Made by a program: the position numbers and the translations under genes. Shown here piece after piece: positions 3,796 to 27,374 of a stretch of DNA of 64,000 nt. Position 1 is the stretch's first letter. Each line of letters opens with the position of its first letter. The notes beneath the pieces were generated by a model, which did not search any database, was not told where the DNA came from, and saw only the letters and a list, made by a program, of their open reading frames with translations. The stretch is from a bacterium (lineage in GTDB: Bacteria > UBA8248): NCBI GenBank assembly GCA_965219955.1, contig OZ244799.1, positions 3,584,001 through 3,648,000 of the forward strand, given 5' to 3'.

Positions 3796-3875
3796 GAACA
3801 ACCTCCTTTTCGGAGAAGGGAAGTTTCAAAATTCATGGCCACGAAAAAGAAGGCCTTCTCAGGGAATGAGCGCAT

Positions 3876-8473: not shown

Positions 8474-9049
8474 TCAAGCCGATGTTTTCGCATAATCCCA
8501 TCCCGTAACAAACAAGTTCACCTCGCCGGTTGCTTCCTCATATTTATAGCGAGTTAACTTGGCGAGATCGTCACCATAGACATGAATGCCCACCACGGGT
8601 TCAGTCGAAGCACAACTCACGCGGTGCACGTCGTTGTCCTTCGTACAGCAGACGAAGACATCTCCAGGCCCGGCCAGACGTTTGCCTAAGGGCATGAGTT
8701 TTACGCGGGCGCCGCTCTCGCGGGGACCTTCACGCAAAAAACTCTCTTCGTTTTCCATTCCTCGGTAAATGCCTATCACGCCCCAGGTGCCGTGATCGTG
8801 AATCGGGGTGGTCTGTCCCACATCCCATATACCGGCGCCTATCGAGAAGCTCTCATCCGGCTCAATGTGAACCTTGTTGAGCGTAAATCCTTCTTTTTTC
8901 ACTAGCAATTGATCGGCACTCAACAGCTCCGGCTCATCCAAAATCGGCTCCAGGCTCTCCGCTACGCGAGCGGTCACTTCCTCTTCGGTACCGCCAGTCT
9001 TTACAATTTCGCGTACTTGGTCGATAAAATCCTTCATCTTTTTTGACAT
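8474..9049 (-). CDS. Cysteine/3-mercaptopropionate dioxygenase family (thiol dioxygenase)
   Basis: TPIHDHGTWG, DVHRV and GIHVYG form the 3-His cupin motif. Confidence 0.8.
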   Translation of the reverse strand: MSKKMKDFIDQVREIVKTGGTEEEVTARVAESLEPILDEPELLSADQLLVKKEGFTLNKVHIEPDESFSIGAGIWDVGQTTPIHDHGTWGVIGIYRGMENEESFLREGPRESGARVKLMPLGKRLAGPGDVFVCCTKDNDVHRVSCASTEPVVGIHVYGDDLAKLTRYKYEEATGEVNLFVTGWDYAKTSA

Positions 9050-9097
9050 CTTCCATCCCCCAAGTTTTAGGATGCGTCCAAGCGGAATTCGTATGTC

Positions 9098-9649
9098 CTA
9101 AATTTTATGATTCATCTCATGGACCAAGAGCGCCAACTTCAAAGATACGCTGCTTGCGAATCCACCGAGCTCGCCCGAGCCCGCGATGACCCGATGTCAT
9201 GGTATTACAAGAGGAACGGGATTTCTATGAAGCGCCTGGCCGACGGCGCGTGATGCTTTCGGGTTTCCGATTTCCTTCGCGACCCAGCCATAATTGCGCG
9301 TCTCTCCGTATGGAATTTCTTCCGTCTTCCTCAGCACTTTTTCCATAAAAGGCGTGAGAGCAGAGAGGTCCGTTTTCAATCTGAAACTTTTTCGCGCGCC
9401 GCTTAGATATTCTTCTATCTCTTTTGAAGCTCGACGATTCAACGGTGTTGATTGCTCCCTCGCATGATTCGCCAAGAGAGGTTTTTCTACGCCATGCAAC
9501 ATTCTTATTTCCGCAATACCTTCATCCGATACGAACACGGAGAATTCCGCATGTACTTTCTGGAGCCAATCGGCAACATGATTTTCCAGCGATTCCCCGT
9601 CTTGTTGGAACAATTCAACCTGCCGCCACTTATCTGCCAGGCGCGCCAT
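9098..9649 (-). CDS. ogt: Methylated-DNA--protein-cysteine methyltransferase with probable selenocysteine at the active site
   Basis: Reads IPYGETRNY...ASRAVGQALHRNPVPLVIP-TGA-HRVIAGSGELGGFASSVSLKLALLVHE. The TGA at 9197-9199 replaces the Cys of PCHR and the frame continues to TAG 9098. Confidence 0.85.
9163..9188 (-). promoter_or_regulatory. Putative bacterial SECIS element (ogt)
   Basis: Hairpin GGGCTC-[GGGC]-GAGCTC with lower stem CATC/GGTG; the G-initiated loop sits at +21 from the TGA. Confidence 0.65.
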
Positions 9650-9672
9650 CTGAAATTCTCCTTTTCATGCCG

Positions 9673-10869
9673 CTAAAACGCCGTGGCCACTCCTTTCACA
9701 TAGGCTTGCCCGGTTCTCAGCCGCAGGATTTGATTCGTGCCGTCCGAGTGCAAGAACGTACTGGCATCGCGAAGGTATTTTTCCATGGGGGCATCGTGCA
9801 TGATGCCTGCGCCGCCGAAAACCTCCATGCCCAGTCTCGCGCAATCAAAAGCGATTTCCGACGCGAAAACTTTGCATTTCCATCCTTGCGTGAAATCATA
9901 GGGCTTTTGATGGTCCACCGCCCAGGCGGTGCGCCAGATGTACGTGCGCGCAATGTCCAGATTCATCGCCATATCGGCAAGTATGGTTTCTATCGCCTGG
10001 TGCTGGCCGATGGGCTTGCCGCCCTGGACACGTTCCCGACTGTAGACGAGCGCCTTCTCGAACGCAGCGCGTCCAACGCCTAAGGCCGTTGCGGCTGCTT
10101 CGGGTTTTCCCATCGCCAGAAGGTTACCCCTGATCTCGAACATGTTTCCCTCGCCCAGGATGATGTGGTTCTCTGGAATCTCGACGTCTTCATAGAAAAT
10201 TTCAGAATTCATCGAAAGACGCTGGCCAATTTTTTCATGCACTTCGCCTATCGATATGCCGGGAGTCTCTCTAGGCACCAGAAAGCCCGTTAAACCTTCC
10301 CTCAAGTTTTTGCTGAGATCGGTTCTTGCCGCCAAAACGTACAACGACGCAACAGGGCCATTGCTGACATAGCGTTTTTTCCCGTTGAGGATCCATTTGC
10401 CGCCTTCTCTCTCCGCGCGCGTATAAAGCGCGATGGAAGGGTCGTCGTAATATCCCTGATGGTCGGTTCCCGCTCCTTCTTCCGTCATGGAAATCGCAGC
10501 CAGGAATCTTGGCTCTTCACATAAACGTTTAATCCACGGATCTCTGACTTCAGGCTCTACTTTTTCGAATATATGGGACAGCTTCCATGTCTGATCCAGG
10601 TTCACCGCAAAACCCAGATCTCCCGCTGCAAGCTCCTCTCCCGCCAGACAGCACGAAAGCACATCGGCGCTCATGCCGCCATGTTCTTTGGGGTAAGGGA
10701 GTTGTCTGAGACCCAAGGCGCTTGCCTTTTCGGTCAGATCCCAAGGCATCCGTTCTTCCCAGTTCTGAATCCGGTCACGCTCGGTGGACACCGGGGCCAA
10801 TTCTTCATAGGAAAATTTTCTGGCTATTTCCTGAATCTGTAATTGTTCCTCATTCAACGTGAATTCCAT
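9673..10869 (-). CDS. Acyl-CoA dehydrogenase family protein
   Basis: SMTEEGAGTD, WILNGKKRYVSNG, RVQGGKPI, VFGGAG, EKYLRD. Confidence 0.92.
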   Translation of the reverse strand: MEFTLNEEQLQIQEIARKFSYEELAPVSTERDRIQNWEERMPWDLTEKASALGLRQLPYPKEHGGMSADVLSCCLAGEELAAGDLGFAVNLDQTWKLSHIFEKVEPEVRDPWIKRLCEEPRFLAAISMTEEGAGTDHQGYYDDPSIALYTRAEREGGKWILNGKKRYVSNGPVASLYVLAARTDLSKNLREGLTGFLVPRETPGISIGEVHEKIGQRLSMNSEIFYEDVEIPENHIILGEGNMFEIRGNLLAMGKPEAAATALGVGRAAFEKALVYSRERVQGGKPIGQHQAIETILADMAMNLDIARTYIWRTAWAVDHQKPYDFTQGWKCKVFASEIAFDCARLGMEVFGGAGIMHDAPMEKYLRDASTFLHSDGTNQILRLRTGQAYVKGVATAF

Positions 10870-10942
10870 GGACGTTCCTCCCGTCAATTGCCCCTTGAAA
10901 GCGAGGCAAATAATCAATCACTTTAAGGAAAACAAAAGCGTA

Positions 10943-11326
10943 TCATGAAGAACAAGACAATACGCGATTGGCCGCTTCCATTTCCATGACACCAGGCGGC
11001 CTCCCAACACCCTCGACAAAGGCGGCATCCGCTCCCGCCATTTCAAGCTGGAAAACAGCCTCGTTCAAATCCGTGTTCGGGGACAACGATATCCCTCGTC
11101 TCGAAGGCATATCCGTTTTGGCAACCTCGCTCACTTTTTGAAATACCTCGGGCACACGAACAAATGCATCAAGGTCCTCTTTGTTCACAATGCCGATCAA
11201 GCGCTTGCTTTCAAAAACAGCCGCCCAAGGCGCGTTTATCCTGTTCATGGCCGCCCAGGTTTCTCTGGTGTCTTCTTCCGCCCCAACAATCGCTACCGCC
11301 TGCAAAAAACACTCCCTGACTTTCAT
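10943..11326 (-). CDS. CBS domain-containing protein
   Basis: Degenerate CBS pair (LIGIVNKEDL; LSPNTDLNEA); ATGA overlap with the upstream gene. Confidence 0.6.
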   Translation of the reverse strand: MKVRECFLQAVAIVGAEEDTRETWAAMNRINAPWAAVFESKRLIGIVNKEDLDAFVRVPEVFQKVSEVAKTDMPSRRGISLSPNTDLNEAVFQLEMAGADAAFVEGVGRPPGVMEMEAANRVLSCSS

Positions 11327-12024
11327 TGCTCGATTTTCTCGGCCGCCGGCAAATGCCCGAAGCGCGTCATCGCTTCAACTTTCAAAAACGTTGATTTCAT
11401 CGCCTTTAGTCTTTCCAGCGGATGTAGGGCTATTTTACCGGCCAGATCGCGAACGTCGGTCAATAGGTCTTTTTTCGATGTGACGCGATTCACCAATCCT
11501 AAGCGATATCCTTCTCGCGCATCAAATCTTCTGCCGGTGAGCACCAAATCTTTCGCAGCAGAAACAAAAATCTGCCGCGTCAGGCGAACAGTAGCGTCCC
11601 CTCCGGGAAATACCCCCAACGCAGTCTCCGGATACCCCAAAACTGCGCCGTCCACCGCAACACGAATATCACATGAGAGCATCAACACCATCCCCCATCC
11701 GAAAGCGGGTCCGTTTACGGCTGCTATGGTCGGGATGGGCAGTTCACGAAGGGCCGTGCTCCACCTCTCGCCCAACATCATGAAGAGCTTCGCTTGTTCT
11801 TCAGTATGGGTGGCGCTTTCCTTGAGGTCGCGCCCTGACGAAAAAGAGCTTCCCGCTCCCGTCACAACTAGAACCTTAATACCCGGCGTCTTTTCAATTT
11901 CATCCATCTCTTTACACATGGCTTTCATCAATGGCGTGTTGAACGCATTTCGTGCTTCCGGCCGATTAACGGTGATGCTCGCGACATGGGATTCGATTTG
12001 TGTGATGAGGAAGTCTGTATTCAT
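11323..12024 (-). CDS. Enoyl-CoA hydratase/isomerase family protein
   Basis: NRPEARNA, FSSGRDL, PTIAAVNGPAFGWG, YPETALG. Confidence 0.9.
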   Translation of the reverse strand: MNTDFLITQIESHVASITVNRPEARNAFNTPLMKAMCKEMDEIEKTPGIKVLVVTGAGSSFSSGRDLKESATHTEEQAKLFMMLGERWSTALRELPIPTIAAVNGPAFGWGMVLMLSCDIRVAVDGAVLGYPETALGVFPGGDATVRLTRQIFVSAAKDLVLTGRRFDAREGYRLGLVNRVTSKKDLLTDVRDLAGKIALHPLERLKAMKSTFLKVEAMTRFGHLPAAEKIEQ

Positions 12025-12098
12025 GTCTTGTCACAATGAACAAAAAGCCCGTCCCCTAAGGGACAGGCTCGATACTGCAAGTAAGATTAGGCGTCTTT

Positions 12099-12881
12099 TT
12101 ATTCTCCGGTAAAAACAGGTTTCCTCTTCTCTTTGAACGCCTGCAGCGCCTCGGCGAAATCCCTGGTGTGATTCAACGGCAACCTGTGGGCGTTCGAAAA
12201 TTCGATAGCCTGAGCGAGCGGCATATCGAGCGTCTGATCGATCACTTTTTTCGCGCCACGAACACCCAAGGGGCCATTGTCTCTGATCCGCTCCGCGATG
12301 GAAGTGGCTTCATCCATCAACACATCCAGCGGATGCGCTTTGTTCACCAAACCGATGCGCTCGGCTTCTTTTCCATCGATTCGTTTGCTCGTGTAAACCA
12401 ACTCTTTCGCCTGACCGGCCGGCATTACCCTTTGAAGCCAGACCACGCCGCCGGCCCCGGGGAAAATACCCAAACTGCATTCCGGGAAACAAAGAGTGGC
12501 TTCTTCAGCAGCCAGCCTGATATCGCACACCAAGGTAATTTCCACGCCCCAGCCGAATGTATGGCCGTTGATGGCGGCGATGGTGGGCATGGGCAAGCGC
12601 TCCCATAACGATGTCGCCGCCATCACATAGCGCTGATATTGATCGGCCATCTCTTTCGTATGGGTAGTGCTTTCTTTCAGGTCGCGGCCCGTGCTGAAAC
12701 CACGTCCCTCTCCTGTGAGAATGACCACCCGCACATCTTGCGCGTCGGCCAAAGTTCGCGTCAATTCCACGAATTCTTCCGCCATCTTGAAACTGATTGC
12801 GTTCAGACTCTCCGGACGGTTGAACTTCACTACCGCCAATCCATCTTCTTCCGTATAGGATAATGTTTCAAATTCGCGCAC
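12099..12881 (-). CDS. Enoyl-CoA hydratase/isomerase family protein
   Basis: NRPESLNA, FSTGRDL, GWGVEI, FPECSLG, AFKEKRKPVFTG; RBS AGGAGG before GTG 12881. Confidence 0.92.
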   Translation of the reverse strand: MREFETLSYTEEDGLAVVKFNRPESLNAISFKMAEEFVELTRTLADAQDVRVVILTGEGRGFSTGRDLKESTTHTKEMADQYQRYVMAATSLWERLPMPTIAAINGHTFGWGVEITLVCDIRLAAEEATLCFPECSLGIFPGAGGVVWLQRVMPAGQAKELVYTSKRIDGKEAERIGLVNKAHPLDVLMDEATSIAERIRDNGPLGVRGAKKVIDQTLDMPLAQAIEFSNAHRLPLNHTRDFAEALQAFKEKRKPVFTGE

Positions 12882-12920
12882 GTGCCCCTCCTGGGAAATA
12901 CTTTTTCTCAATAATTCGGA

Positions 12921-13451
12921 TCAGCTTTTCAGGTGGCTGGCCACTTCTTCGACAAACTTCAGCGTCGTGTCTCTCATTTCATCGGGCTGCAAATTACTGA
13001 CCGGGTGAGGCAACTGAATATAAGGATGCCCTTCCATGCCCTTGCCACGGAATTGAAAGTCCGCCGCGTTCTTGAACGCCTCGGTGATGATGGTCGTTGA
13101 AGGAATGCCCCGTTTTTCAAATTCAACCGTGTCGTGCACACTGCACAACGTGCAGGAGCCTCAGCCTCCCAATGCGGCTATCGCCACATCCACCTCCTGG
13201 GCCATTTCTTCGATCATTTCATCAGTGGCCGGCTTCGAGTAATGTTCTTTTCGCCTCGAAATGACTCTGGCGACATCGTATTGCTCACGGAGGGCATTCC
13301 CCAGGGTCTCCAAAATGATATCCGCTTGTTCTTTGGTGTTATCGAGGAGCCCTACCACCTTTCCCGAAAGATCGCCGGGCCGTTGCGCAAGCACGATTCG
13401 CGCGGCCGACCCTCCCGCCGTCGGATCGATGAATCCCATTCCGTTCGCCAT
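12921..13451 (-). CDS. UGSC family selenoprotein (single CDS read through TGA 13161-13163)
   Basis: Track ORFs 13161-13490 and 12921-13148 are in the same frame and join as AIAALGG-TGA-GSCTLCSVHDTVEFEKRGIPS. RBS GGAG before ATG 13451. Confidence 0.88.
13131..13149 (-). promoter_or_regulatory. Putative bacterial SECIS element (UGSC protein)
   Basis: 8-bp stem GTTGTGCA/TGCACGAC with a GTG loop at +20 from the TGA (GU-initiated loop). Confidence 0.7.
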
Positions 13452-13645
13452 GGTTTTCTCCAAATGATAGGTGAATGCAACCGAAACCAAATCATATCCC
13501 GCAATTCATTCCTTGTCTACGATATCAACTCTTTCGATTTTCCCATGAAAATGCGAATGATGTTTTATCCGCTTCTCAGATTCGCGGAATTTTGGCAAAA
13601 TCAAGTCTAATTCACGGCAATCCTCTTACCTTAAGGAGCAAACAA

Positions 13646-15907
13646 ATGGCCGATTACGATATCATCGGCAAGTCGAATGTCCGATACGATGCTATCCCGA
13701 AAGCAGATGGCTCCATGCCCTACGGAGAAGACGCGATCCCTGCAGGCGCTTTGCAGTGCGGCGTGCTGTTTACGCCCGTCCCCGTAGGCCGCCTCAAAAA
13801 GCTCGACACTTCCAAAGCCGAAAAAATCCCGGGCGTAGTCGCCATTCTGACCGCAAAGGACATTCCGGGCACAAACGCGCGATTCGGCTCCGGCACGCCG
13901 GGCCTGCCACATCAGCCCGTGCTGGTTGAGGATAAAATTGAATTTACCGGAGACGCTCTCGCCATCGTAGGCGCCGAAAACAGAGAAGCGCTTGATGCCG
14001 CGATAGCTGCGATCGAATTGGAAATCGAGGCGGAGGAGGGCGTGTGGACAACGCGTCACGATGAAACTAGCGCCGAGAAACGACAAGCGTGTGACTTTGA
14101 AGCTACACGTGGAGACGTAAAAAGAGCGTTTGACGAAGCCGACGTGGTGATTGAGAAAACATACACCACACAACTTGCTGAACACGCCTTCCTGGAACCT
14201 GCTTCCGGTACTTCCTGGATGGAGGAAGACGGCGTCATCACCATCCGCGTCGGCACACAGCTCATTGAATACTATCGCGCCATTGCGGCGATTTTAGGAA
14301 TCTCGCACAGCCGCGTCCGCCACCTCGGCACTTATGTCGGCGGCGGATTCGGCGCCAAGGGCATGCTGACGGTGGAACCTTACCTGGCGCTGCTCACCTG
14401 GCATACGCAAAGACCCGCCGTAATGGTGTTGGGTCGCGAGCACGGCATCCGAAACACCTCGAAAAAACATCCTTTCTATATGAAGTACAAAACGGGAGCG
14501 ACCAAGGACGGGAAAATCTTGGCCGTACAGGCGGACATCGTGGGAGACGCAGGCGCATATCCGTATAAATCGAATCTATTCCTCCTGGGCGCCATGTGCA
14601 TCGCCGCAGGCCCGTACGATGTGCCCAACGCAAAAATACGCGCACACGGCTATCTCACCAACAATCCCATCACCAACGCGATGCGCGGTGTCGGATCGAA
14701 CCAAGTATGTTTCGCGTATGAGACCCAAATGAACCTGGTTGCAGACGCCATCGGGATGGATAAATATGAATTCAGGCGAAAAAATTTCATCCAGAAAAAC
14801 CAGGAACTGCCGACCGGACAGAAAATACCTTATGAACCGAACCTGGAAGGGTGTCTCGACGGCGCGCTTCAGGCTTTGGGCGAACCCACAGAACCAGGCC
14901 CGGGCAAACGCATTGGCAGGGCGGCGGCGGCGAACATCACCGGCTACGGAAGGCCGAATGACGACGCGAATGCGGCGGTTCACCTCGAGCCGGACGGCAG
15001 CGCCGTGGTCCGCGTGAGTGCGCCGGATATAGGCGCCGGCCAGGGCGCTACGCTTCAAAGCATCACGGCTGAAACCCTGGGACTCAGGCTCGACCAGGTT
15101 TCCACCCGCCTGTCCGATTCCGCCACAACACCGCTCTCGGGCATCACCGCAGGCTCCCGACAAACGCTTATGGCCGGGCACGCCGTTCGACTCGCCGCAG
15201 ATGAGGTTCGGAAAGCCGTTACCAAAGGCGCCGCTTCGTTGCTTGAAGCTGCGGAAGAGGATATTCGCGTAGGAGGCGGCGAGGCGTGGGTGGCCTCTGC
15301 TCCCGAGAGAAGAGTCGGCATCGGTCCTGCGGCCGGCGAAGCCAAAAAAATGGGTGAAGCGCTGCATTGCACGCATGGCTACAACATGCCGGGACATGAA
15401 TATGAGAATCCGGAGCGATACATGAATGGCATGGGCGGATGGTCGGACTACACATTCGGTGTTCATGCAAGCGAAGTGGAAGTCGACATCGAAACCGGCG
15501 AAGTGAATCTCTTGAAGCACGTCGCTTCCCATGACGTCGGGCGAGCTCTGAATCCTCAAAGCGTGGAGGGGCAATTCGAAGGCGGCGCGGTAATGGGAAT
15601 CGGCTATGCGCTGCACGAGGAAATCACCATGGTGGAAGGAGACTGTCGATCACAGAGCTTTCACGAGTATCTGATCCCCACCTCCTCGGATATCGGCGAG
15701 TTTGAGTCCGTTGTTCTTGAATGCGGGGAAGGGGCGGGTCCATATGGCGCACGCGGCGTCGGAGAACCTCCGTGCAATAACGCGCCGGCCGCTGTCGCCC
15801 TCGCCATCAACGATGCGATAGGCACGGAGGTCTACGACCTGCCCATCACGCCCGAGCGTGTCTGCTGGGCGGTAACAAAGAAAAACGGTAAAAGCAACGG
15901 CCATTAA
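13646..15907 (+). CDS. Xanthine dehydrogenase family molybdopterin-binding subunit
   Basis: EHAFLEP, VGGGFGAKG, AMRGVG, DIGAGQG, GQFEGG, GARGVGEPP; RBS AAGGAG before ATG 13646. Confidence 0.93.
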   Translation: MADYDIIGKSNVRYDAIPKADGSMPYGEDAIPAGALQCGVLFTPVPVGRLKKLDTSKAEKIPGVVAILTAKDIPGTNARFGSGTPGLPHQPVLVEDKIEFTGDALAIVGAENREALDAAIAAIELEIEAEEGVWTTRHDETSAEKRQACDFEATRGDVKRAFDEADVVIEKTYTTQLAEHAFLEPASGTSWMEEDGVITIRVGTQLIEYYRAIAAILGISHSRVRHLGTYVGGGFGAKGMLTVEPYLALLTWHTQRPAVMVLGREHGIRNTSKKHPFYMKYKTGATKDGKILAVQADIVGDAGAYPYKSNLFLLGAMCIAAGPYDVPNAKIRAHGYLTNNPITNAMRGVGSNQVCFAYETQMNLVADAIGMDKYEFRRKNFIQKNQELPTGQKIPYEPNLEGCLDGALQALGEPTEPGPGKRIGRAAAANITGYGRPNDDANAAVHLEPDGSAVVRVSAPDIGAGQGATLQSITAETLGLRLDQVSTRLSDSATTPLSGITAGSRQTLMAGHAVRLAADEVRKAVTKGAASLLEAAEEDIRVGGGEAWVASAPERRVGIGPAAGEAKKMGEALHCTHGYNMPGHEYENPERYMNGMGGWSDYTFGVHASEVEVDIETGEVNLLKHVASHDVGRALNPQSVEGQFEGGAVMGIGYALHEEITMVEGDCRSQSFHEYLIPTSSDIGEFESVVLECGEGAGPYGARGVGEPPCNNAPAAVALAINDAIGTEVYDLPITPERVCWAVTKKNGKSNGH

Positions 15908-17642
15908 CCCGGATATTTCACCGACAAATGGCATGGGGCCTCTGAATGTCGGATAATGTGAGTTGTCTCAATAACTTACACCCGTCCGACAGAGAGGCCC
16001 CATGGATACGCATTGTACACCGGAACAACTTCACTTTCACCCCCACGGAAGACGCGAGGTCATCGCCCGATTCGACGGCGGACGGATCACGTCGGACGCC
16101 GGCGGGGTGCTGCTTCGCGAGACGGATCTCCGCCTGGGTCTGATGGCTCGTCTGGCGCGGTGTTTTCGTGATTGCCGCAAGCCCGGCAGCGTGGAGCACC
16201 CGGTGCGCTCGCTGGCGGCGCAGCGGGTGTACGCGCTGGCGCTGGGCTACGAGGACCTGAACGACCACGAGGATTTGCGCCGCGACAGGTTGCTGGCGCT
16301 GCTGGTGGGCAAGCGGGACCTGACGGGAGCCGGGCGGGTTCGCCTTCGGGACCGCGGCTCTCCGCTGGCCGCATCGAGTACGCTGAACCGCCTGGAGTTG
16401 GGCGGCGCCGAGGCGGCGACGGATCGCTACAAGCGCATCGCTGCGGACTTCGAGGCGATGGACCGCCTGCTGGTGGACGTGTTCATGGAGTCTTACGCCG
16501 AACCGCCCGAAGAGATATGGCTGGACCTCGACGCCACGGACGACCCCCTGCACGGTCGCCAGGAGGGGCGCTTCTTCCACGGCTATTACGGCCGCTACTG
16601 TTATCTGCCGCTCTACGTCTTCTGCGGCGCGCATCTGCTGTGCGCGCGGCTGCGCCGCTCGAACGTCGACGCCTCGGCCGGCAGCGAGGAGGAGTTGGCG
16701 CGGATCGTGGCGCAGGTCCGCAGGCGCTGGCCGCGTACGCGGGTCGTGGTTCGCGGCGACTCGGGTTTTTGCCGCGAGCCGTTGATGCGCTGGTGCGAGG
16801 AGAACGGCGTCGGCTACGTGTTCGGCATGGCGCGCAACGCGCGGCTGGTGCGGGCGATTGGCCGGGACCTCTACCGGGCCGAGGTCGTCTGTCGCCGCAC
16901 GGGTGAGCCGGCGCGCCGGTATCGCGACTTCCGCTATCGAACGCGCAAGAGCTGGTCCAGAACCCGCCGGGTGGTGGGCAAGGCGCAATACCTGCCCAGG
17001 GGGGCGAACCCGCGGTTCGTGGTCACCAATCTCCGCCCCCGGCGGGCCGGCGCCAGACGCCTCTACGAAGAACTCTACTGCGCCCGGGGAGAGATGGAGA
17101 ACCGCATCAAGGAACAGCAACTCGGCCTGTTCGCCGACCGCACCAGCAGCGCCACCATGAGGGCCAATCAGTTGCGGCTCTACTTCGCCTCCTTCGCCTA
17201 CGTCCTGATGCACGGACTCCGGCGCCTGGGGCTGGCGGGCACGACATGCGCCAGGGCCCAGTGCGCAACGATCCGGCTGAAACTGCTCAAGATCGGCGCC
17301 CGCGTGAGGGTCAGCGTGCGCAAGGTCCGGCTGTCTATCTCCGAGGCCTGGCCCCATGCGGCGCTCTTCGAAAAGGTAGTGAACAACCTGCGTACGCACC
17401 CGCCCTGGCCGACGGCGGGGGAGAGTGACTGAGCGTAGAATCGGAGCGACATAGGTTGCCGCAGCGGGAAACCTGCGCCTGCGCGTCGGCCGGCACTCCC
17501 CGAAAGCCTTCGAAATCGACGAAAAAGCGCCGCTCGGGCGCCGTGCGTCATCGTATCGCGCCGACGAAGAAGGCCGCCTCCCGAATCAAGCCGTCCACGA
17601 CTTCAAATCAGGCCGTTCCAAAGCCTCGGTGAAATATCCGGG
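15908..17642 (+). mobile_element. IS1380 family insertion sequence, complete (1735 bp)
   Basis: Perfect 17-bp terminal IRs CCCGGATATTTCACCGA (15908-15924 and 17626-17642), flanked by TTAA direct repeats (15904-15907 and 17643-17646). Confidence 0.93.
16002..17432 (+). CDS. IS1380 family transposase
   Basis: FDGGRITSDAG, LDLDATDDPLHGRQEG, RGDSGF, YCARGEMENRIKEQQ. Confidence 0.95.
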   Translation: MDTHCTPEQLHFHPHGRREVIARFDGGRITSDAGGVLLRETDLRLGLMARLARCFRDCRKPGSVEHPVRSLAAQRVYALALGYEDLNDHEDLRRDRLLALLVGKRDLTGAGRVRLRDRGSPLAASSTLNRLELGGAEAATDRYKRIAADFEAMDRLLVDVFMESYAEPPEEIWLDLDATDDPLHGRQEGRFFHGYYGRYCYLPLYVFCGAHLLCARLRRSNVDASAGSEEELARIVAQVRRRWPRTRVVVRGDSGFCREPLMRWCEENGVGYVFGMARNARLVRAIGRDLYRAEVVCRRTGEPARRYRDFRYRTRKSWSRTRRVVGKAQYLPRGANPRFVVTNLRPRRAGARRLYEELYCARGEMENRIKEQQLGLFADRTSSATMRANQLRLYFASFAYVLMHGLRRLGLAGTTCARAQCATIRLKLLKIGARVRVSVRKVRLSISEAWPHAALFEKVVNNLRTHPPWPTAGESD

Positions 17643-17660
17643 TTAACAGGCTTCAATCAC

Positions 17661-17694
17661 AAAAGAGCCCCGGCATTATTGTCGGGGCTCTTTT
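17661..17694. terminator. Bidirectional rho-independent terminator
   Basis: AAAAGAGCCCCGGCA-TTAT-TGTCGGGGCTCTTTT between convergent units. Confidence 0.8.
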
Positions 17695-17816
17695 CTAAAG
17701 AAACACACAGTATTTCTTGTATTGCAAAGAGCAGACCGAACAGAGTCCTTTCGGGATTCTGAGATGTGTTGCTGAAAACCCGGTCTTCTGACCATTATTT
17801 TCTGAAAAGAAAACTT

Positions 17817-18836
17817 TCACACATCAAATTTTTTTGTCACGGCCCGACACGCCACGGTGATCCCGTGCATGACCATGCTGGAGGGTGAACCCCTGCTTCC
17901 CGCGACGATTAAATGAAGGTCTTCGGGATCGCCAACCGCAGGCACAAAAAAATCATCATCGTTCACATCCACGGGAAACGGCCAGCGATCCGCGCCTTTC
18001 TCTCCCCTCCAGATACCGCCGCGCTTGATATCCCCGATAGTGCGCCCACCCATTTCCAGTAATTTTTGATGGACATCACTGCGAGTCATTCCGGCGTCAG
18101 CGCAAAGATGCGCATGTTGCGCGCCCAGGACAACCGCCATATCTGCTTGCCGATACATATTGGGCCCACCCAAGGCGGACATCATATCGGCAACCGTCGT
18201 CAGAAGCCGGTCGGGCGTCAGGCTCGCATCGTCCCATACCTGCACGGGTCCTTCGAGTGGAATCATGGTCACCACGCTATCGTTCTTTGAAAACCCTTTG
18301 GATTCCGCATACGACTCCCAGGGAGATTCCTCCTCGTTCTCCATGATGCAAAAAGTGTTTCGCCAGGGGCCGCCAAAACCGCCGAGACAGGTGATACCGG
18401 GAATGCCTCCCCCCACGTTCATCATGATGAGCCGCACGGCGCGGCCGATGGTCAGATTCGCGCGAAAACCGGGACCCATGCAGCCCACTCCGCCGTGCAG
18501 TCCGATCTCCTTTGCGTAGGGACCATTAACCAATAGAAAAGGAGCGCCCGCGCTTGTTGTGGCCTGAATCAGATTTACGTTGAAACGCTCATCAAGAAGC
18601 GCCTCCAGCCCGGCTATCAAAACCGGCATGTATTCGGGCTTGCAACCCGCCATCACGGCATGGGCCGCCACGCTTTGAATGCTGAGTTCCCCGCCCGCCG
18701 GAGCCACTTGGCCAAGCACTTCGCCCGGCTCCCTTGTCGTTCCTGTGAGCATCAAGCCAATTCTCTCTTCCGTGGGCGTCACGACAGGCAGGCCGTCCGA
18801 CCATTCCTTGTCAAAGAAAAACTCAAACTCATCCAT
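17817..18836 (-). CDS. UGSC-partner 'DGLP' family protein, paralog 4
   Basis: WSDGLPVVTPTEER, AHAVMAGCKPEY, GPGFRANLTIGRA, ENEEESPW. Confidence 0.8.
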   Translation of the reverse strand: MDEFEFFFDKEWSDGLPVVTPTEERIGLMLTGTTREPGEVLGQVAPAGGELSIQSVAAHAVMAGCKPEYMPVLIAGLEALLDERFNVNLIQATTSAGAPFLLVNGPYAKEIGLHGGVGCMGPGFRANLTIGRAVRLIMMNVGGGIPGITCLGGFGGPWRNTFCIMENEEESPWESYAESKGFSKNDSVVTMIPLEGPVQVWDDASLTPDRLLTTVADMMSALGGPNMYRQADMAVVLGAQHAHLCADAGMTRSDVHQKLLEMGGRTIGDIKRGGIWRGEKGADRWPFPVDVNDDDFFVPAVGDPEDLHLIVAGSRGSPSSMVMHGITVACRAVTKKFDV

Positions 18837-18871
18837 GCGTTCATCCTCAAAAGCAAGCCTGAGAGAAAGGC

Positions 18872-19888
18872 TTATGGTTCATATTCGATTGAGACCGCCT
18901 CACTGCCATCCACCCAGCCGGGCATGACGGCCGTCACCGGGCCGGGCGTACCCCCTGCGACGAGAAGAATCAGATCTTCTTCATCCTTAATCGCCGGTAC
19001 CAGATACGAATCATCCTGCAGGTTCACGTCAAATGGCCACTTGGCTGCCATCTCATCACGCCAATAGCCTGATTTTTTCAGCTCTCCAAGGGGCTTTCGC
19101 GCAAGCTCCATGATTCGGCGATGGACATCTTCCTTACTTAAACCAGCCTCTGCGCACATGCGCGCATGATCCGGACCCAAAGCAACGACCACCTGGGTTT
19201 TCAGCCATATATTGAGCGAACCCAAGGTCGATATTTTATCCGCAAGGCCCACGAAAAAAGATTCCGGCTCTTTTGAATAATCGTCGATATAGCCTTGAGG
19301 CGCTTCCGTCATCACGGCGGTCACGACATCTTCATCCTGCTGAAAGCCCTTCGTGACGGACAATGGCTCCCAGGGGCTTTCCGCTTCGTTCTCGGCGATG
19401 CAAAACGTATATCTGGCGGGCGAGCCGAACGTGCTCATCGAGGCGGAAACCGGCACACCGCCGCCCAGGTTCATGAGTATTAACCGGATGGCGCGTCCAA
19501 TCGTCGCATTCGCCCGAAAACCCGGCCCGAAGCAACCTGTGCCGCCATGCAGGCCGATTTTTTTCGCATACGGCCCGTTCACGATGATCAGAGGGGCCGC
19601 GCTGTGCATGGTGCCCTGTACGCCGTTCAAATTGAGTTTTGGCGCAAGGAGCGCTCCAAGCCCTGCAATAACAAGGGGCAAATACGAAGGCTCACACCCC
19701 GCCATCACGGCGTGCGCGGCAATCGCCTCCACGCTCGCCTCCCCCATGAGGGGCGGCACCAAACCGATAATTTCCGAGGTTTCAAGCCTCGTACCCGAAA
19801 ACATGGCGGCCATTCGTTCTTCTGTAGGGGGAATTACCGGCAGGCCGTCCGACCAGGGTTTTTGAAAGAAAAACTCGAATTCATCCAT
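18872..19888 (-). CDS. UGSC-partner 'DGLP' family protein, paralog 3
   Basis: WSDGLPVIPPTEER, AHAVMAGC, GCFGPGFRANATIGRA, CIAENEAESPW. Confidence 0.8.
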   Translation of the reverse strand: MDEFEFFFQKPWSDGLPVIPPTEERMAAMFSGTRLETSEIIGLVPPLMGEASVEAIAAHAVMAGCEPSYLPLVIAGLGALLAPKLNLNGVQGTMHSAAPLIIVNGPYAKKIGLHGGTGCFGPGFRANATIGRAIRLILMNLGGGVPVSASMSTFGSPARYTFCIAENEAESPWEPLSVTKGFQQDEDVVTAVMTEAPQGYIDDYSKEPESFFVGLADKISTLGSLNIWLKTQVVVALGPDHARMCAEAGLSKEDVHRRIMELARKPLGELKKSGYWRDEMAAKWPFDVNLQDDSYLVPAIKDEEDLILLVAGGTPGPVTAVMPGWVDGSEAVSIEYEP

Positions 19889-19929
19889 GGGAAAATGACT
19901 TTACCAGACGGAATGCGGGAAATCCGGCA

Positions 19930-20964
19930 TTACACTTCAAACACGCCATGAACGGCGCGGCTGCCGCCGCTCCACCCGTGACAGACCGCACTGCCCGATC
20001 CCCAGCCGCCCGCGACGATCAAATGGAGGTCACGGGGATCCTTGATGACGGGAACGAAAAACTCATCATCATCGGGCTCCGTGTGGATATACATCGCCAG
20101 CGCGCGCTCACGCCGCCAGTTTCCGCCTCGCTTCAGGTCCTTCACCTTGTGGCCGGCCAGCTCACACAGCCGCTGATGCACGTCCGCGCGCGTAAGGCCG
20201 CCCTCGGAGCAAATCTTCGCATGCTGGGGATTCATGGCGACGACCATATCGGTTCTGGGCGCGTGCATGTTCCAGGAGCCCAGACCCGTCATCGCATCGG
20301 CGATTCCCCGGAGCAGCCTCTCGGGCTCCTCGCTGACGTCATCGAAGGTCAGGCGCGGGCTTTCCACCATGGCCATGGTGATCACGTTCTCATCCGCCCC
20401 GTATCCCCTCGATTCGGCGAGCGTCTCCCAGGGGTGAAACTGGAGGTTCTCCGTGACGCACGCGGTATAGCGAAGCGGCGTGCCGAAAATCGTCATGGAA
20501 GAAACGCCCGGGATGCCCCCGCCCAGGTTCATCAGAATCAGGCGAATCGCGCGGCCGATGGAGGCGTTGGCCCTGAATCCGGGGCCGAAACAGCCATTGC
20601 CCCCGTGAATGCCGATTTCCCCGGAATACGGGCCGTTCACGATCATCAGGGGCGCCACGCCGTGCATCGTGCCCTGCACACCGTTCATGTTGAATTCATC
20701 GCGAAGCATGAGGGAGGCGGCGCCGAGTACGACCGGCAGGTATTCCGGCTTACACCCGGCCATGACCGCATGCACCGCCACGCTGTGAACCGTGGCCTCC
20801 CCCATGGCGGGAGGAACCTGACCGATGACCTCGGCAGGACTTCTCTTCGTGCCCGAGAGCATGCGCTCGATGCGCTCTTCGGTCGGGGTGACGACGGGCA
20901 GGCCGTCCGACCAGGGTTTTTCCAGGAAAAACTCGAATTCATCTTGAGGATCGTTCAAAACCAT
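19930..20964 (-). CDS. UGSC-partner 'DGLP' family protein, paralog 2
   Basis: WSDGLPVVTPTEER, VHAVMAGCKPEY, GCFGPGFRANASIGRA. Confidence 0.8.
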   Translation of the reverse strand: MVLNDPQDEFEFFLEKPWSDGLPVVTPTEERIERMLSGTKRSPAEVIGQVPPAMGEATVHSVAVHAVMAGCKPEYLPVVLGAASLMLRDEFNMNGVQGTMHGVAPLMIVNGPYSGEIGIHGGNGCFGPGFRANASIGRAIRLILMNLGGGIPGVSSMTIFGTPLRYTACVTENLQFHPWETLAESRGYGADENVITMAMVESPRLTFDDVSEEPERLLRGIADAMTGLGSWNMHAPRTDMVVAMNPQHAKICSEGGLTRADVHQRLCELAGHKVKDLKRGGNWRRERALAMYIHTEPDDDEFFVPVIKDPRDLHLIVAGGWGSGSAVCHGWSGGSRAVHGVFEV

Positions 20965-20986
20965 TCACCCCTTGATATATTTGGTC

Positions 20987-22021
20987 TTATGACGATTCAA
21001 ATGCGCGGGAAACCGAGCGGCTGCTCCCGTTCCAGCCGTGCATCACGGCCGTAATCGGCCCCGGAACCCCGCCCGCCACGATCAGGAGCAGCCTCCCGGT
21101 CTCTTTGATCGTCGGAACGAACGCATCGTCATCATCCAGATCGACGGGGAACGGGAAGTCTCTGATGCGGTTCTCCCGGTAATGCCCCCCCGTTTTGAGT
21201 TCGCCCACCGTGCGGCCCGCGATTTCGCAAAGACGCCCATGGACATCCGCTTTCGAATACCCCTTTTTGGCGCAGATCGTGGCCTGCTGCGGACTCATCG
21301 CCACCACCAGATCCGTGTTGGCCCAGCAGTTCCACGAACCCAGATGCGACATGGTGTCCGCGATGGAGGGGAGCATGCGCTCGGGGTCGTCGCTCACGTC
21401 ATCCCAGGACATGACGGGGCCTTCCACGTGCACGGCGGTGACGACATCCTCCCCCGCATCAAAACCCTGCGTCTGCGCGAAAGACTCCCAGGGGCTTTCC
21501 GCTTCATTCTCGGCGATGCAGTACGTGAACCGCCCCGGTTGAGAGAACGTGCTCATCGAGGTGATGCCCGGGATTCCGCCGCCGATGTTCAGGAGCAAAA
21601 GCCTGATGGCGCGCCCGATCGTCGCGTTGGCGCGGTTCCCGGGGCCGAAGCAGCCGAGCCCGCCGTGTACGCCGATTTCCCCCGCGTAGGGGCCGTTCAC
21701 GATCAAAAGGGGAGCCGCGCAGGAGAGCGTCGCCTGCACGCCGCCCACGTTGAATTTTTCCTCCAGAATCGCTTCCACGGCCCCGATGAGAACCGGCATA
21801 TACGCCGGCCTGCACCCGGCCATGACGGCGTGGGCGGCGATGCTTCGAACGTCCGCCTGCGCCAAGAGCGGAGGCACGTCGCCCAGGACTTCGTCCGGGT
21901 CGCGGTTCGTTCCCGCCAGCATGAGGCCCAGGCGCTCCTCCGTCGGGGGGATGACCGGCAGGCCGTCCGACCAGGGTTTCTCGAAGAAATACTCGAACTC
22001 ATCCACGGGAGAAGTGCTCAC
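20987..22021 (-). CDS. UGSC-partner 'DGLP' family protein, paralog 1
   Basis: WSDGLPVIPPTEER, AHAVMAGCRPAY, GCFGPGNRANATIGRA. Confidence 0.8.
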   Translation of the reverse strand: MSTSPVDEFEYFFEKPWSDGLPVIPPTEERLGLMLAGTNRDPDEVLGDVPPLLAQADVRSIAAHAVMAGCRPAYMPVLIGAVEAILEEKFNVGGVQATLSCAAPLLIVNGPYAGEIGVHGGLGCFGPGNRANATIGRAIRLLLLNIGGGIPGITSMSTFSQPGRFTYCIAENEAESPWESFAQTQGFDAGEDVVTAVHVEGPVMSWDDVSDDPERMLPSIADTMSHLGSWNCWANTDLVVAMSPQQATICAKKGYSKADVHGRLCEIAGRTVGELKTGGHYRENRIRDFPFPVDLDDDDAFVPTIKETGRLLLIVAGGVPGPITAVMHGWNGSSRSVSRAFESS

Positions 22022-22173
22022 GAAATGCCTCCGGAGAAACTTGACGACGCGCAGGATACGTTAATAAAGCCGCACAAATATACATGGGCGCTGGACAGAT
22101 TGCGAGTCGGTGTCGTTAGAATGCGTCTGACGCTCCATCTTCCGTAAACGCCTCAACTACAGGAGTTTATTCC

Positions 22174-22560
22174 ATGCCGATCTACAGAAACCTCGCCGCG
22201 CAGAACCAGGGGAAAGCCGCCGACTACGTCACCGCAGACGCCGCCTGGGTCGATGGCGCCCATACCACCATCGGTTATTTCCGCATGGAGGCGGGGGGCC
22301 ACTCCAACCCGCATTATCACCACGACGAGCAGTTCCTCTATCTCCTGAAGGGCGGGCTGCGGGTGGCCGTGGAAGGGGAGATACTCGAAGCCGCGCCAGG
22401 CGATCTGGTGCAGTTCCGTCCCGGCGAGGTGCACGAGATCATGGCGCTGGATGAGCCCGTGGAACTCCTGCTCACGAGGGCTCCGGCCCGGCCGAGTCTC
22501 GAGGTGCTCGCGGTGACGCCCGAAGGAGAGAAGGCCCGCAGCGTCCTGCGCTCCGAATAG
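22174..22560 (+). CDS. Cupin domain protein
   Basis: PHYHHDEQFLYLLKG and PGEVHE; RBS AGGAG; divergent from the DGLP array. Confidence 0.85.
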   Translation: MPIYRNLAAQNQGKAADYVTADAAWVDGAHTTIGYFRMEAGGHSNPHYHHDEQFLYLLKGGLRVAVEGEILEAAPGDLVQFRPGEVHEIMALDEPVELLLTRAPARPSLEVLAVTPEGEKARSVLRSE

Positions 22561-24843: not shown

Positions 24844-24882
24844 TTCGTTGCCGCTAATTTGAAATGCGAGAGAGAAAGTGAA

Positions 24883-25446
24883 ATGACGGAATTCGAAATC
24901 GCAACGCTCGAATTGCAAAGATGGAGCATTTACGTCGCCGCCGGTGTCGGCCTCGCCCAATGCGCCTTGATAGGGCTCGGGCTGCTCATGATGTATGTGG
25001 CGTCAAGGCACAGAGACAGGGCCTTGGACAATCAGTCGAAAGTGCTGGACAACCAGACGAAGGCTTTGGACGCCTTGCTTGATCGCACCGGAGCATACAC
25101 GAAATCGCTGGAAGCTACGCTCGATCGCACCGAGGGTACTTGGAAGGCATTGATCGAACGTGTTGAGAGCGGCACGAAAGCAACGGATACGTTGATCGAA
25201 CGCAGCGATGCTGGCTGGAAGGCGTTAATCGAACGTATCGAGAGCAGTTCGAAAGCGACGGATACGTTGATCGAACGCACCGCAACGAATACGAAATCGC
25301 TTGAGGCTACTATAGAGCGTACCGAGGCCGGTACAAAAGCGCTGATCGAACGTGTCGAAAATGGCGCGAAGGCAACGGATGCCTTGATCGAACGCACGGA
25401 AGATAGCGCCAGGGCGCTGCGCAGATTGCTGGAGAGAACCGAATAA
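24883..25446 (+). CDS. Membrane-anchored coiled-coil repeat protein (paralog A)
   Basis: TM segment containing AQCALIGLGL, then RDRALD and about ten 11/14-aa (K)ALIER[TV] repeats. Confidence 0.75.
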   Translation: MTEFEIATLELQRWSIYVAAGVGLAQCALIGLGLLMMYVASRHRDRALDNQSKVLDNQTKALDALLDRTGAYTKSLEATLDRTEGTWKALIERVESGTKATDTLIERSDAGWKALIERIESSSKATDTLIERTATNTKSLEATIERTEAGTKALIERVENGAKATDALIERTEDSARALRRLLERTE

Positions 25447-26980: not shown

Positions 26981-27328
26981 CTAGCGCATGCGTTCGATGA
27001 AAGCCCTGAACGCCATCCTGCTTTCTTCTTGTCCTTTGATGAGTTCTTCCAACACCTTCGACTGATTCTCCAGCGACTTCGAGTTGCCCGCCGTGCGTTC
27101 GAGCGTCGCCTCCAGCGATTTCGAGCTTGCCGCTGTGCGTTCGAGCATCGCCTCCAGTGATTTCGAGCTTGCCGCCGTGCGTTCAATCAACGCATCCAGC
27201 GCCGCTCTTTGATCGTCCAGCGCCTTGTCCCGATTTTTCGAGGCGTCGCGCATTTGATTGAGGCCATACCAGATGAGAGCGCATTGGGACGCGCCGATGA
27301 CGAGGTTCAGAGCTTCGTACGTGGTCAT
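26981..27328 (-). CDS. Membrane-anchored coiled-coil repeat protein (paralog B)
   Basis: SQCALIWYGLNQMRDASKNRDKALD followed by three 42-nt ERTAASSKSLEA repeats; RBS GGAGG. Confidence 0.75.
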   Translation of the reverse strand: MTTYEALNLVIGASQCALIWYGLNQMRDASKNRDKALDDQRAALDALIERTAASSKSLEAMLERTAASSKSLEATLERTAGNSKSLENQSKVLEELIKGQEESRMAFRAFIERMR

Positions 27329-27374
27329 GGGTTTCCTCCAGAGCCGAATGAACAAGTCGTTGGGCCCTCAAGGA

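Follow-up and report, generated by a model that had tools for sequence, protein, structure and literature searches.

The DNA considered here is a stretch of 64,000 nucleotides (the window, to whose own numbering positions refer unless another source is named) from the 4.28-Mb, single-contig genome of a sponge-associated bacterium (GC content 0.609). The system in question occupies positions 8474–22560, where a gene for the selenoprotein UGSC heads a minus-strand operon and four tandem genes of a second family, DGLP, lie beyond it on the same strand. As far as genomic sequence can indicate, UGSC and DGLP are partners and the partnership appears to be near-obligatory; the cluster of one UGSC and four DGLP genes is conserved. 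In the reading that we prefer, and to which we give about an even chance, the two proteins would be the two parts of one widespread selenium-dependent redox enzyme, in which electrons would pass along a relay, one UGSC would be shared by several DGLPs and the substrates would be small acids.

The pairing can be seen within the host genome itself, which contains 8 UGSC and 15 DGLP genes (tblastn). All 8 UGSC paralogs carry TGA at the position of U (selenocysteine, Sec), in the motif UGSC in six cases, UGSS in one and UGGC in one, and at 7 of the 8 loci a DGLP is found on the same strand, either 72–286 bp away on one side or the other or fused in frame. Of the eight, only the UGSC of the window lacks an adjoining DGLP. 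The DGLPs that have no adjoining UGSC are the four of the window and three elsewhere, and these seven form a closer subfamily (46–59% identity). Across taxa, 80 DGLP loci, out of 619 confirmed, were surveyed in species-representative genomes of many phyla, including Dehalococcoidia, Methylomirabilota, Binatia, Burkholderiales, Acidimicrobiia, Poribacteria, a haloarchaeon and a member of the Bacillaceae. UGSC is encoded on the same strand in 72 of them and within 400 bp in 70, with TGA in 68 loci and a cysteine codon in 2. Additionally, among 41 related genomes the 27 that contain UGSC are exactly those that contain DGLP, and none of 14 well-known control genomes contained UGSC. The first-pass annotation of this DNA had described UGSC as commonly adjacent to or fused with DGLP and had proposed a comparison of neighbourhoods across genomes; adjacency, fusions and phyletic pattern all agree with it. 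The DGLP family is large, with 4686 representatives at 50% identity (E ≤ 0.001), or 1070 at 1e-30, and among clusters at 90% identity 7494 of 8000 scored candidates match it.

Natural fusions were counted among the 150 best DGLP representatives. DGLP starts at residue 178 or later in 22 proteins, 19 of which have a complete N-terminal UGSC, one an AhpC/Redoxin-like domain and two an unrecognisable extension. Another 24 have an N-terminal extension of 83–116 aa, which in 20 corresponds to no more of UGSC than what follows the Sec, as would be expected if gene callers restart after the TGA. The reverse order is found in two DGLP proteins, which bear the first half of UGSC at the C-terminus. Other redox modules are also joined to DGLP, namely a thioredoxin-disulfide reductase in P0160 (TIGR01292, 331 bits against a cut-off of 343) and a ResA/AhpC-like thioredoxin (Trx) domain in P0246. 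Since gene callers stop at TGA, UGSC-DGLP fusions had to be sought starting from DGLP; searching instead for UGSC relatives of greater length yielded a single protein, garbled in frame. Fusions are also the probable origin of the automatic names ('Thioredoxin', 'Thiol-disulfide oxidoreductase family') that DGLP proteins bear elsewhere. Cultured carriers include Natrialba asiatica DSM 12278 (Cys form, L052) and Robertmurraya sp. 2P01SA (Sec form, L097), and Hyphomonas neptunium is a named UGSC carrier in the text available of an earlier survey (PMC1976440). Two separate observations concern the architecture of the family. Four proteins of about 710–740 aa (P0126, P0127, P0130, P0133) contain two or three DGLP stretches, tandem DGLP-DGLP fusions which suggest that DGLP may act as a dimer. 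In the host genome (G000), positions 4065206–4066817 (L029:9210-10817, minus strand) encode an in-frame UGGC(Sec)-DGLP fusion, 536 aa long and including the TGA, and another DGLP gene comes directly after it.

The UGSC of the window (176 aa, 12924–13451, minus strand) has its predicted Sec codon, TGA, at 13161–13163, and reading this codon as Sec links both halves of the protein (...ALGG-U-GSC...). It scores 174.1 bits against PF24696 (cut-off 25, E 3.6e-51) and 150 bits against NF041046 (cut-off 125), and its orthologues in relatives keep the TGA. A second in-frame TGA (9197–9199) replaces the active-site cysteine of a methylated-DNA-protein-cysteine methyltransferase (Sec-Ogt, 9101–9649, minus strand; 100.5 bits against TIGR00589, cut-off 46.4), whose active site would read ...VIP-U-HRV..., with Sec for the Cys of P-C-H-R-V; it is present in the same operon, with the TGA kept, in 7 of 7 relatives whose sequences were fetched. 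The genome carries selA, selB, selD and a tRNA-Sec, all above their cut-offs, as the first-pass annotation had asked to be confirmed, and selD itself has one TGA.

Each of the two TGAs is followed by a hairpin resembling a selenocysteine insertion sequence (SECIS). That of UGSC has 8 bp and a GUG loop (13131–13149, minus strand, 15–33 nt from the U of UGA), and that of Sec-Ogt has 7 bp and a GGGC loop (9166–9183, minus strand, 17–34 nt from the U of UGA). Folding energy of the single sequences 3' of both TGAs was no better than that of shuffled sequences (z −0.14 and −0.17), and a scan of the window against Rfam returned a tRNA-Arg only, with no bacterial SECIS family above threshold. As hairpins of single sequences prove nothing at z values near zero, it is comparative covariation that supports both. 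For UGSC, the 63 nt from the TGA were compared in 70 non-identical genes of many phyla plus that of the window (71 in total): positions 15–22/26–33 are paired in 89.8% of cases compared with 83.0% in shuffled sequences (none of 500 reached the observed value), and sliding the partner strand as a control gave 12–58%. The pair 21–27 is C-G in 47 sequences and G-C in 22, a swap that couples a Cys/Trp codon change with a synonymous change of a Val codon. For Sec-Ogt, all 7 of the 7 relatives retain the 7-bp hairpin, its loop being GGGC or AGGC, and two of them (L038 and L036) show compensatory changes. Sec decoding of both proteins is therefore the prediction to which codon, hairpin and machinery converge, and the earlier description of two TGAs each with a SECIS-like hairpin is borne out by covariation and not by folding energy.

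The operon that UGSC heads (8474–13451, minus strand) contains seven genes with intergenic gaps of −4 to 74 nt. Every gene that the first-pass annotation had named between 8474 and 22560 was recovered by open reading frame (ORF) and family scans. UGSC is followed after 12 nt by ECH1, an enoyl-CoA hydratase/isomerase (ECH; 12099–12911, ECH_1 E 5.1e-60), and by ECH2 (11323–12024, ECH_1 E 3.7e-45), whose shorter C-terminus leaves a match to positions 2–206 of the 251-position profile. Next comes a small CBS-like protein of 127 aa (10943–11326), which matches CBS only below threshold (E 0.0017, 19.1 bits compared with 24) and is syntenic in 6 of 7 relatives. The acyl-CoA dehydrogenase (ACAD; 9673–10917) has three detected ACAD domains and is closest to the medium- and short-chain enzymes (MCAD/SCAD), with an E value of 4.5e-63 for MCAD compared with 2.3e-29 for the desulfinase 5af7, which ranks about 52nd; against the 3-sulfinopropionyl-CoA desulfinase model NF042439 it scores 159.8 bits, below the cut-off of 600. 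Aligned to MCAD 1udy, it has S-D-G-T where MCAD has Y-E-G-T, so that Asp replaces the catalytic Glu376, a change which may alter the reaction. After Sec-Ogt comes the last gene, a thiol dioxygenase-like cupin of 191 aa (8474–9049) of the 3-mercaptopropionate dioxygenase (MDO)/cysteine dioxygenase (CDO) type. It aligns over its full length with solved MDOs (6xb9, E 4.9e-20; 3uss, E 8.8e-19), matches which uphold the earlier call of a thiol-dioxygenase homologue; an HDH motif and a later 'vHrv' His align with solved MDO/CDO, and 28 of its 30 Atlas neighbours belong to the CDO_I set. Its score against Pfam CDO_I is 16.8 bits, below the cut-off of 23, though the alignment is full-length. No CoA-ligase or CoA-transferase gene is found in the operon.

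Sequencing runs that contain this stretch are mostly sponge metagenomes. In two sponge metatranscriptome runs from one study, contigs at 90–99% likeness cover parts of the UGSC operon, and one RNA-library contig of 1358 nt spans ECH1 and the whole of UGSC across the TGA. DNA carry-over is possible in RNA libraries, so that this is a weak sign of transcription of the UGSC operon.

The four DGLP genes are found at 17817–18836 (DGLP1, 339 aa), 18872–19888 (DGLP2, 338 aa), 19930–20964 (DGLP3, 344 aa) and 20987–22021 (DGLP4, 344 aa), all on the minus strand and all carrying the motif W-S-D-G-L-P-V-x-x-P-T. Divergent from them is a Cupin_2 protein (22174–22560, plus strand; Pfam Cupin_2) which is syntenic in relatives. 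Between the two units, and divergent from UGSC, lies the large subunit of a molybdenum hydroxylase of the xanthine dehydrogenase family (Mo-hydroxylase; 13475/13646–15907, plus strand; MoCoBD_1, MoCoBD_2 and Ald_Xan_dh_C), syntenic in 7 of 7 relatives and in the more distant L040, followed by an IS1380 element (15905–17646, plus strand) whose transposase (16002–17432) scores 403 bits against a cut-off of 180.

In all 22 same-genus genomes, the orthologue of the window's UGSC lies 2.6–6.2 kb from a four-gene DGLP array, and in a genome of another genus (G023) it lies near three to four DGLP genes; one further genome (G024) was too fragmented for its cluster layout to be read. The order common to the 7 fetched relatives and L040 is cupin, three to four DGLPs, Mo-hydroxylase and UGSC-ECH-(ECH)-CBS-(ACAD)-Ogt-dioxygenase. 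The closest relative (G002, 94–98% protein identity for most cluster genes) has the same order with 165 bp at the site of the IS, and a metagenome DNA contig (run X9) joins position 15908 to 17829, skipping IS1380. Because the layout recurs in all 22 same-genus genomes and lacks the IS in G002, the insertion appears to be recent and not part of the system; the element has 11 copies in the genome, 99.9–100% identical. The idea that the IS had joined two unrelated regions, prompted by the low GC of the left part of the window (0.51–0.53 against 0.609 for the genome), was rejected because the IS-free junction is conserved in relatives. The same convergent spot between Mo-hydroxylase and DGLP1 holds a restriction-modification methylase in G001 and BREX-like fragments in G009, different insertions that mark it as a hot spot. 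Thus the UGSC operon and the four DGLPs are one conserved cluster despite the IS, as the first-pass annotation had supposed. It had also taken the four large subunits to be interchangeable. The paralogs are only 50–57% identical to one another and each has a 1:1 orthologue at 80–98% in the genus, a contrast which argues that the four are old, separately maintained and specialised and points to four separate specificities, so that from the overall proposal the partnership and the cluster stand and interchangeability does not.

The two proteins differ in how far they can be placed among known families and folds. A natural UGSC-DGLP fusion was modelled by AlphaFold with high confidence (pLDDT 91.6, pTM 0.92), as was DGLP1 alone (pLDDT 95.8). 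The UGSC part (residues 29–185 in the fusion model) finds its best structural matches among alpha/beta domains of the flavodoxin, CheY and B12-binding types (Z 9–11.8), with no Trx-fold protein among the 50 matches listed; a sequence search of the PDB with UGSC gave no match. DGLP has no Pfam or NCBIfam match even at E 10, and for the DGLP1 model the best hit among solved folds (VIA-align) reached Z 5.0 over 93 residues, no convincing match. A Foldseek resemblance of DGLP1 to class I fumarate hydratase (E 6.7e-4 to 4e-3) was rejected as homology, with a template-modelling score of 0.2–0.3 (0.23–0.32 at E 6.7e-4) and a root-mean-square deviation of 15–18 Å. The residues invariant in the 15 DGLPs of the genome are, in DGLP1 numbering, D14, G15, P17, P21, T22, A63-G64-C65, G105-P106, G131-R132-A133 and W173, and Asn127 and Glu166 are also conserved beside Asp14 and Arg132. 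C65 is the only invariant one of three candidate cysteines, which speaks against a three-Cys Fe-S site.

The genes around the other pairs are varied. In the host genome an ECH, ACAD or CoA-transferase III gene is present at 3 of the 7 other UGSC loci, and the pairs adjoin CoA-transferase III with ECH, two ACADs with a TetR gene, two S15 peptidases with an Opp transporter, or a luciferase-like monooxygenase. In the survey, 30 of the 80 loci have an ECH, ACAD or CoA-transferase III gene no more than 8 kb away, and 10 of the 80 have a TctC carboxylate-binding protein. A Pfam tally restricted to the first 40 of the 80 loci (150 of the 293 flanking ORFs picked) found luciferase-like monooxygenases at 11 of 40, mostly in related Dehalococcoidia, Amidohydro_2 at 4 and TauD at 2. 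These contexts point to catabolism of small acids as a probable role, and their heterogeneity suggests many substrates.

Within the preferred reading, DGLP (~340 aa) would be the substrate-specific catalytic part, binding its substrate and reducing it via Cys65. The U-x-x-C pair of UGSC (~175 aa, flavodoxin-like alpha/beta) would cycle between a reduced state and a selenenylsulfide and would either re-reduce DGLP or attack the substrate itself as in GrdB/PrdB, two electrons reaching DGLP through UGSC from a thioredoxin-type system. We infer this relay from the UxxC motif, the invariant Cys65 and the fusions of DGLP to a thioredoxin reductase and to a Trx-like domain. Thioredoxin-coupled single-Cys reductases, such as methionine sulfoxide reductases fused to Trx, are a known arrangement of similar logic, in which a catalytic protein with one essential Cys works with a CxxC/UxxC redoxin and the partners may be joined in one chain or linked to thioredoxin reductase; the difference is that DGLP has no relation to them in sequence or fold. 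The one-to-one gene pair seen elsewhere would in this lineage have become one UGSC and four diverged DGLPs, so that four reductases differing in specificity would probably share a single Sec subunit. Two ECHs, an ACAD and an MDO-like cupin in the operon suggest as substrates or products small carboxylic acids, which may bear a thiol and would then be handled as CoA esters; a thiol-bearing acid as the substrate in this window would be a guess from the dioxygenase homologue.

Several observations weigh against this reading. UGSC and the four DGLPs are not one operon, as the convergent Mo-hydroxylase and, in several genomes, mobile or defence genes lie between them. Eight of the 80 surveyed DGLP loci (all 4 from Poribacteria, 1 from Rokubacteria and 3 short contigs) have no UGSC match, so that some DGLPs may use another reductant, and the three further UGSC-less DGLPs of the genome belong to the same subfamily as those of the window. 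A mirror-tree comparison of UGSC and adjacent DGLP scores at 70 loci gave rho 0.18 (p 0.14), with paralog controls ranging from −0.18 to 0.46, so that it speaks neither way. The neighbours listed above, together with DNA-repair genes at 4 of 40 loci, define no single substrate class. Finally, contigs from the two sponge RNA runs cover the DGLP region barely or not at all, though such contigs can neither rank nor exclude expression.

A wider version of the preferred reading, which we regard as possible but doubtful, is that UGSC-DGLP is a new class of selenium-dependent reductase whose fold has no relative among solved structures, and in which a shared Sec 'redox head' plugs into many substrate-specific DGLP bodies and reductively cleaves C-S, C-N or C-halogen bonds of recalcitrant small acids. 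This genome would have 15 such bodies, and a single UGSC would serve four of these in trans. If true, the class would number thousands of sequence clusters, from SAR202, Binatia, Methylomirabilota and sponge symbionts among other groups, and would explain the abundance of UGSC in ocean metagenomes.

Somewhat unlikely, in our judgement, is a mechanism of the GrdB/PrdB type, in line with the reductive cleavage put forward in the first-pass annotation, in which the Sec of UGSC would attack a substrate carbon held on DGLP and bring about reductive C-N, C-S or C-X cleavage, the substrates here being organosulfur acids whose thiol products would go to the dioxygenase and the CoA enzymes. The GrdB-GrdE and PrdB-PrdA pairs resemble UGSC-DGLP in joining a small UxxC Sec subunit to a larger, substrate-specific partner that exists as substrate-specific paralogs, and the Cys of UxxC would resolve a selenoether or selenenylsulfide. 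Moreover, the Sec-bearing half of the window protein matches TIGR01917 (GrdB) at GrdB residues 325–415 (E 4.3e-4), and 4 of 14 scanned UGSC-DGLP fusion proteins match in the same register (E 0.04–0.12). However, the window score is 19.3 bits against a cut-off of 602, a TIGR01918 match in the fusion scan reached 11 bits against 65, and Pfam GRDB (PF07355) gave no match to UGSC at E up to 10. Scans of DGLP against Pfam and NCBIfam revealed neither a resemblance to GrdE/PrdA, the pyruvoyl partners, nor any sign of a pyruvoyl proprotein, and no GrdA, GrdC or GrdD gene was seen among the window ORFs. The hosts differ as well: GrdB/PrdB hosts are amino-acid-fermenting anaerobes, whereas those of UGSC-DGLP seem to be bacteria of sponges and the ocean with an aerobic or microaerobic way of life. 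The organosulfur part draws on the MDO homologue and on the ACAD and ECH genes of the operon. Dithiodipropionate is degraded through 3-mercaptopropionate dioxygenase and 3-sulfinopropionyl-CoA, and the operon resembles that pathway in having an MDO homologue and an ACAD that also matches the desulfinase model. The ACAD is nearer to MCAD/SCAD than to the desulfinase, however, the operon has no enzyme to form a CoA ester by transfer or ligation, and none of the 80 diverse loci showed an MDO gene in the neighbourhood of UGSC-DGLP.

Alternatively, the pair could be a housekeeping reductase for repair or detoxification, acting on oxidised proteins, peroxides, or electrophile or alkylation damage, with the CoA-ester genes mere neighbours. 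This we consider quite improbable, even with DGLP fused to an AhpC/Redoxin-like domain and to thioredoxin reductase, with Sec-Ogt held in the operon of all 7 relatives, with HhH-GPD neighbours at 3 of 40 loci and Ogt/Ada at 1 of 40 (and HhH-GPD near a UGSC-less DGLP, L031), and with UGSC classed among redox proteins in the accessible parts of the papers on it; 15 diverged paralogs set beside transporters, CoA-transferases, peptidases and monooxygenases have instead the look of substrate-diversified catabolism. Least probable of all, and in our view very unlikely, is that the UGSC and the four DGLPs of the window work apart, the DGLPs using thioredoxin or a Trx-like reductant, UGSC serving its own operon or distant DGLPs and their proximity being inherited order, for the separate, convergently arranged transcription units, the DGLPs that lack UGSC or are fused to other redox modules and the difference in GC (0.50–0.55 in the UGSC operon compared with 0.56–0.64 in the DGLP genes, DGLP3 and DGLP4 having 0.63–0.64) are set against an order kept in all the genus genomes, G023 and L040 despite three different insertions between the units, and against the fact that the only unpaired UGSC of the genome adjoins its largest group of unpaired DGLPs.

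The preferred reading of a two-part redox enzyme can be set beside what is already in print. The window protein is a full member of the UGSC family (PF24696/NF041046; Zhang and Gladyshev 2007, 2008) by its HMM scores, its U-G-S-C motif, its TGA and its SECIS hairpin. UGSC has been described as a selenoprotein of unknown function (PMC1976440) and was placed in the top five selenoprotein families by abundance in the Global Ocean Sampling (GOS) data, with 255 Sec and 21 Cys forms (PMC2398784). The 2008 GOS paper (Zhang and Gladyshev; PMC2398784), in the portion available, suggests a Trx-like fold for UGSC and reports its fusion to an unnamed conserved domain, 'Unknown_1', which is likely to be DGLP, a candidate identity by text only. 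The relevant entries of reviews of 2022 and 2026 list UGSC without a function (PMC9312934, PMC13188914), and Sec-containing methylated-DNA-protein-cysteine methyltransferase is given as a predicted selenoprotein family (PMC1976440, PMC13188914). Where the portions of the printed record at hand have no function, no systematic partner and a Trx-like fold, the present analysis has a near-obligatory partner and a flavodoxin-like model (Z 10–11.8). The Sec-Ogt of the window is like the printed one in having Sec at the cysteine of PCHRV and differs in its setting, a conserved metabolic operon whose first gene also encodes a selenoprotein. The system had been put forward as undescribed, and this needs to be narrowed: UGSC, Sec-Ogt and the fusion of UGSC to an unnamed domain were already in print, and full-text searches for UGSC, outside which most subscription journals lie, turned up no mention of the partner family or its ubiquity and no function for UGSC. 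New here are the near-obligatory pairing, the size of a partner family that matches no known fold, its alternative fusions to redox modules, the support of the SECIS by covariation and the conserved cluster of one UGSC with four DGLPs. UGSC, so far without a function, thereby becomes a defined two-component enzyme open to expression, reconstitution and screening, and the cluster of the window is a natural experiment with one Sec subunit beside four specialised partners. Because the partner appears near-obligatory and the cluster is conserved, the function of this abundant marine selenoprotein is now testable.

Some further observations on the genes around DGLP were made. Two tandem Peptidase_S15 genes of the X-Pro dipeptidyl peptidase type flank both a UGSC-DGLP pair (L024, 2845 kb) and a UGSC-less DGLP (L031, 2330 kb), a repeated setting which may point to duplication of a module and to substrates derived from peptides or proline. 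Genes for DNA base repair adjoin UGSC-DGLP in unrelated taxa (HhH-GPD at L045, L066 and L073, Ogt/Ada at L070), much as Sec-Ogt does in the window, which may be due to chance; the HhH-GPD gene near a UGSC-less DGLP of the host genome is at L031:6076-6717. Other IS1380 copies lie no more than about 5–6 kb from two further UGSC-less DGLP genes (L030, L031). No gene for an Fe-S or FAD subunit adjoins the Mo-hydroxylase large subunit of the window, the 4 Fer2_2 matches of the genome all lying elsewhere, and the whole genome has ten Mo-hydroxylase large-subunit genes compared with four for the 2Fe-2S small subunit (Fer2_2), so that most of the large subunits, including this one, are partnerless.

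In the rest of the window, the low GC of 0.51–0.53 extends over the left 14 kb, and this block is syntenic across the genus despite the GC contrast. In relatives it accompanies the UGSC operon, and it also holds a 623-aa metallohydrolase of the DUF3604/CehA-McbA family (window 1930–3801) and two DinB-like proteins. On the other side of the cluster, two small ORFs at 24859–25446 and 26981–27355 encode coiled-coil-like repeats ('LIERTE.../LERTA...SKSLEA') with a hydrophobic N-terminal segment.

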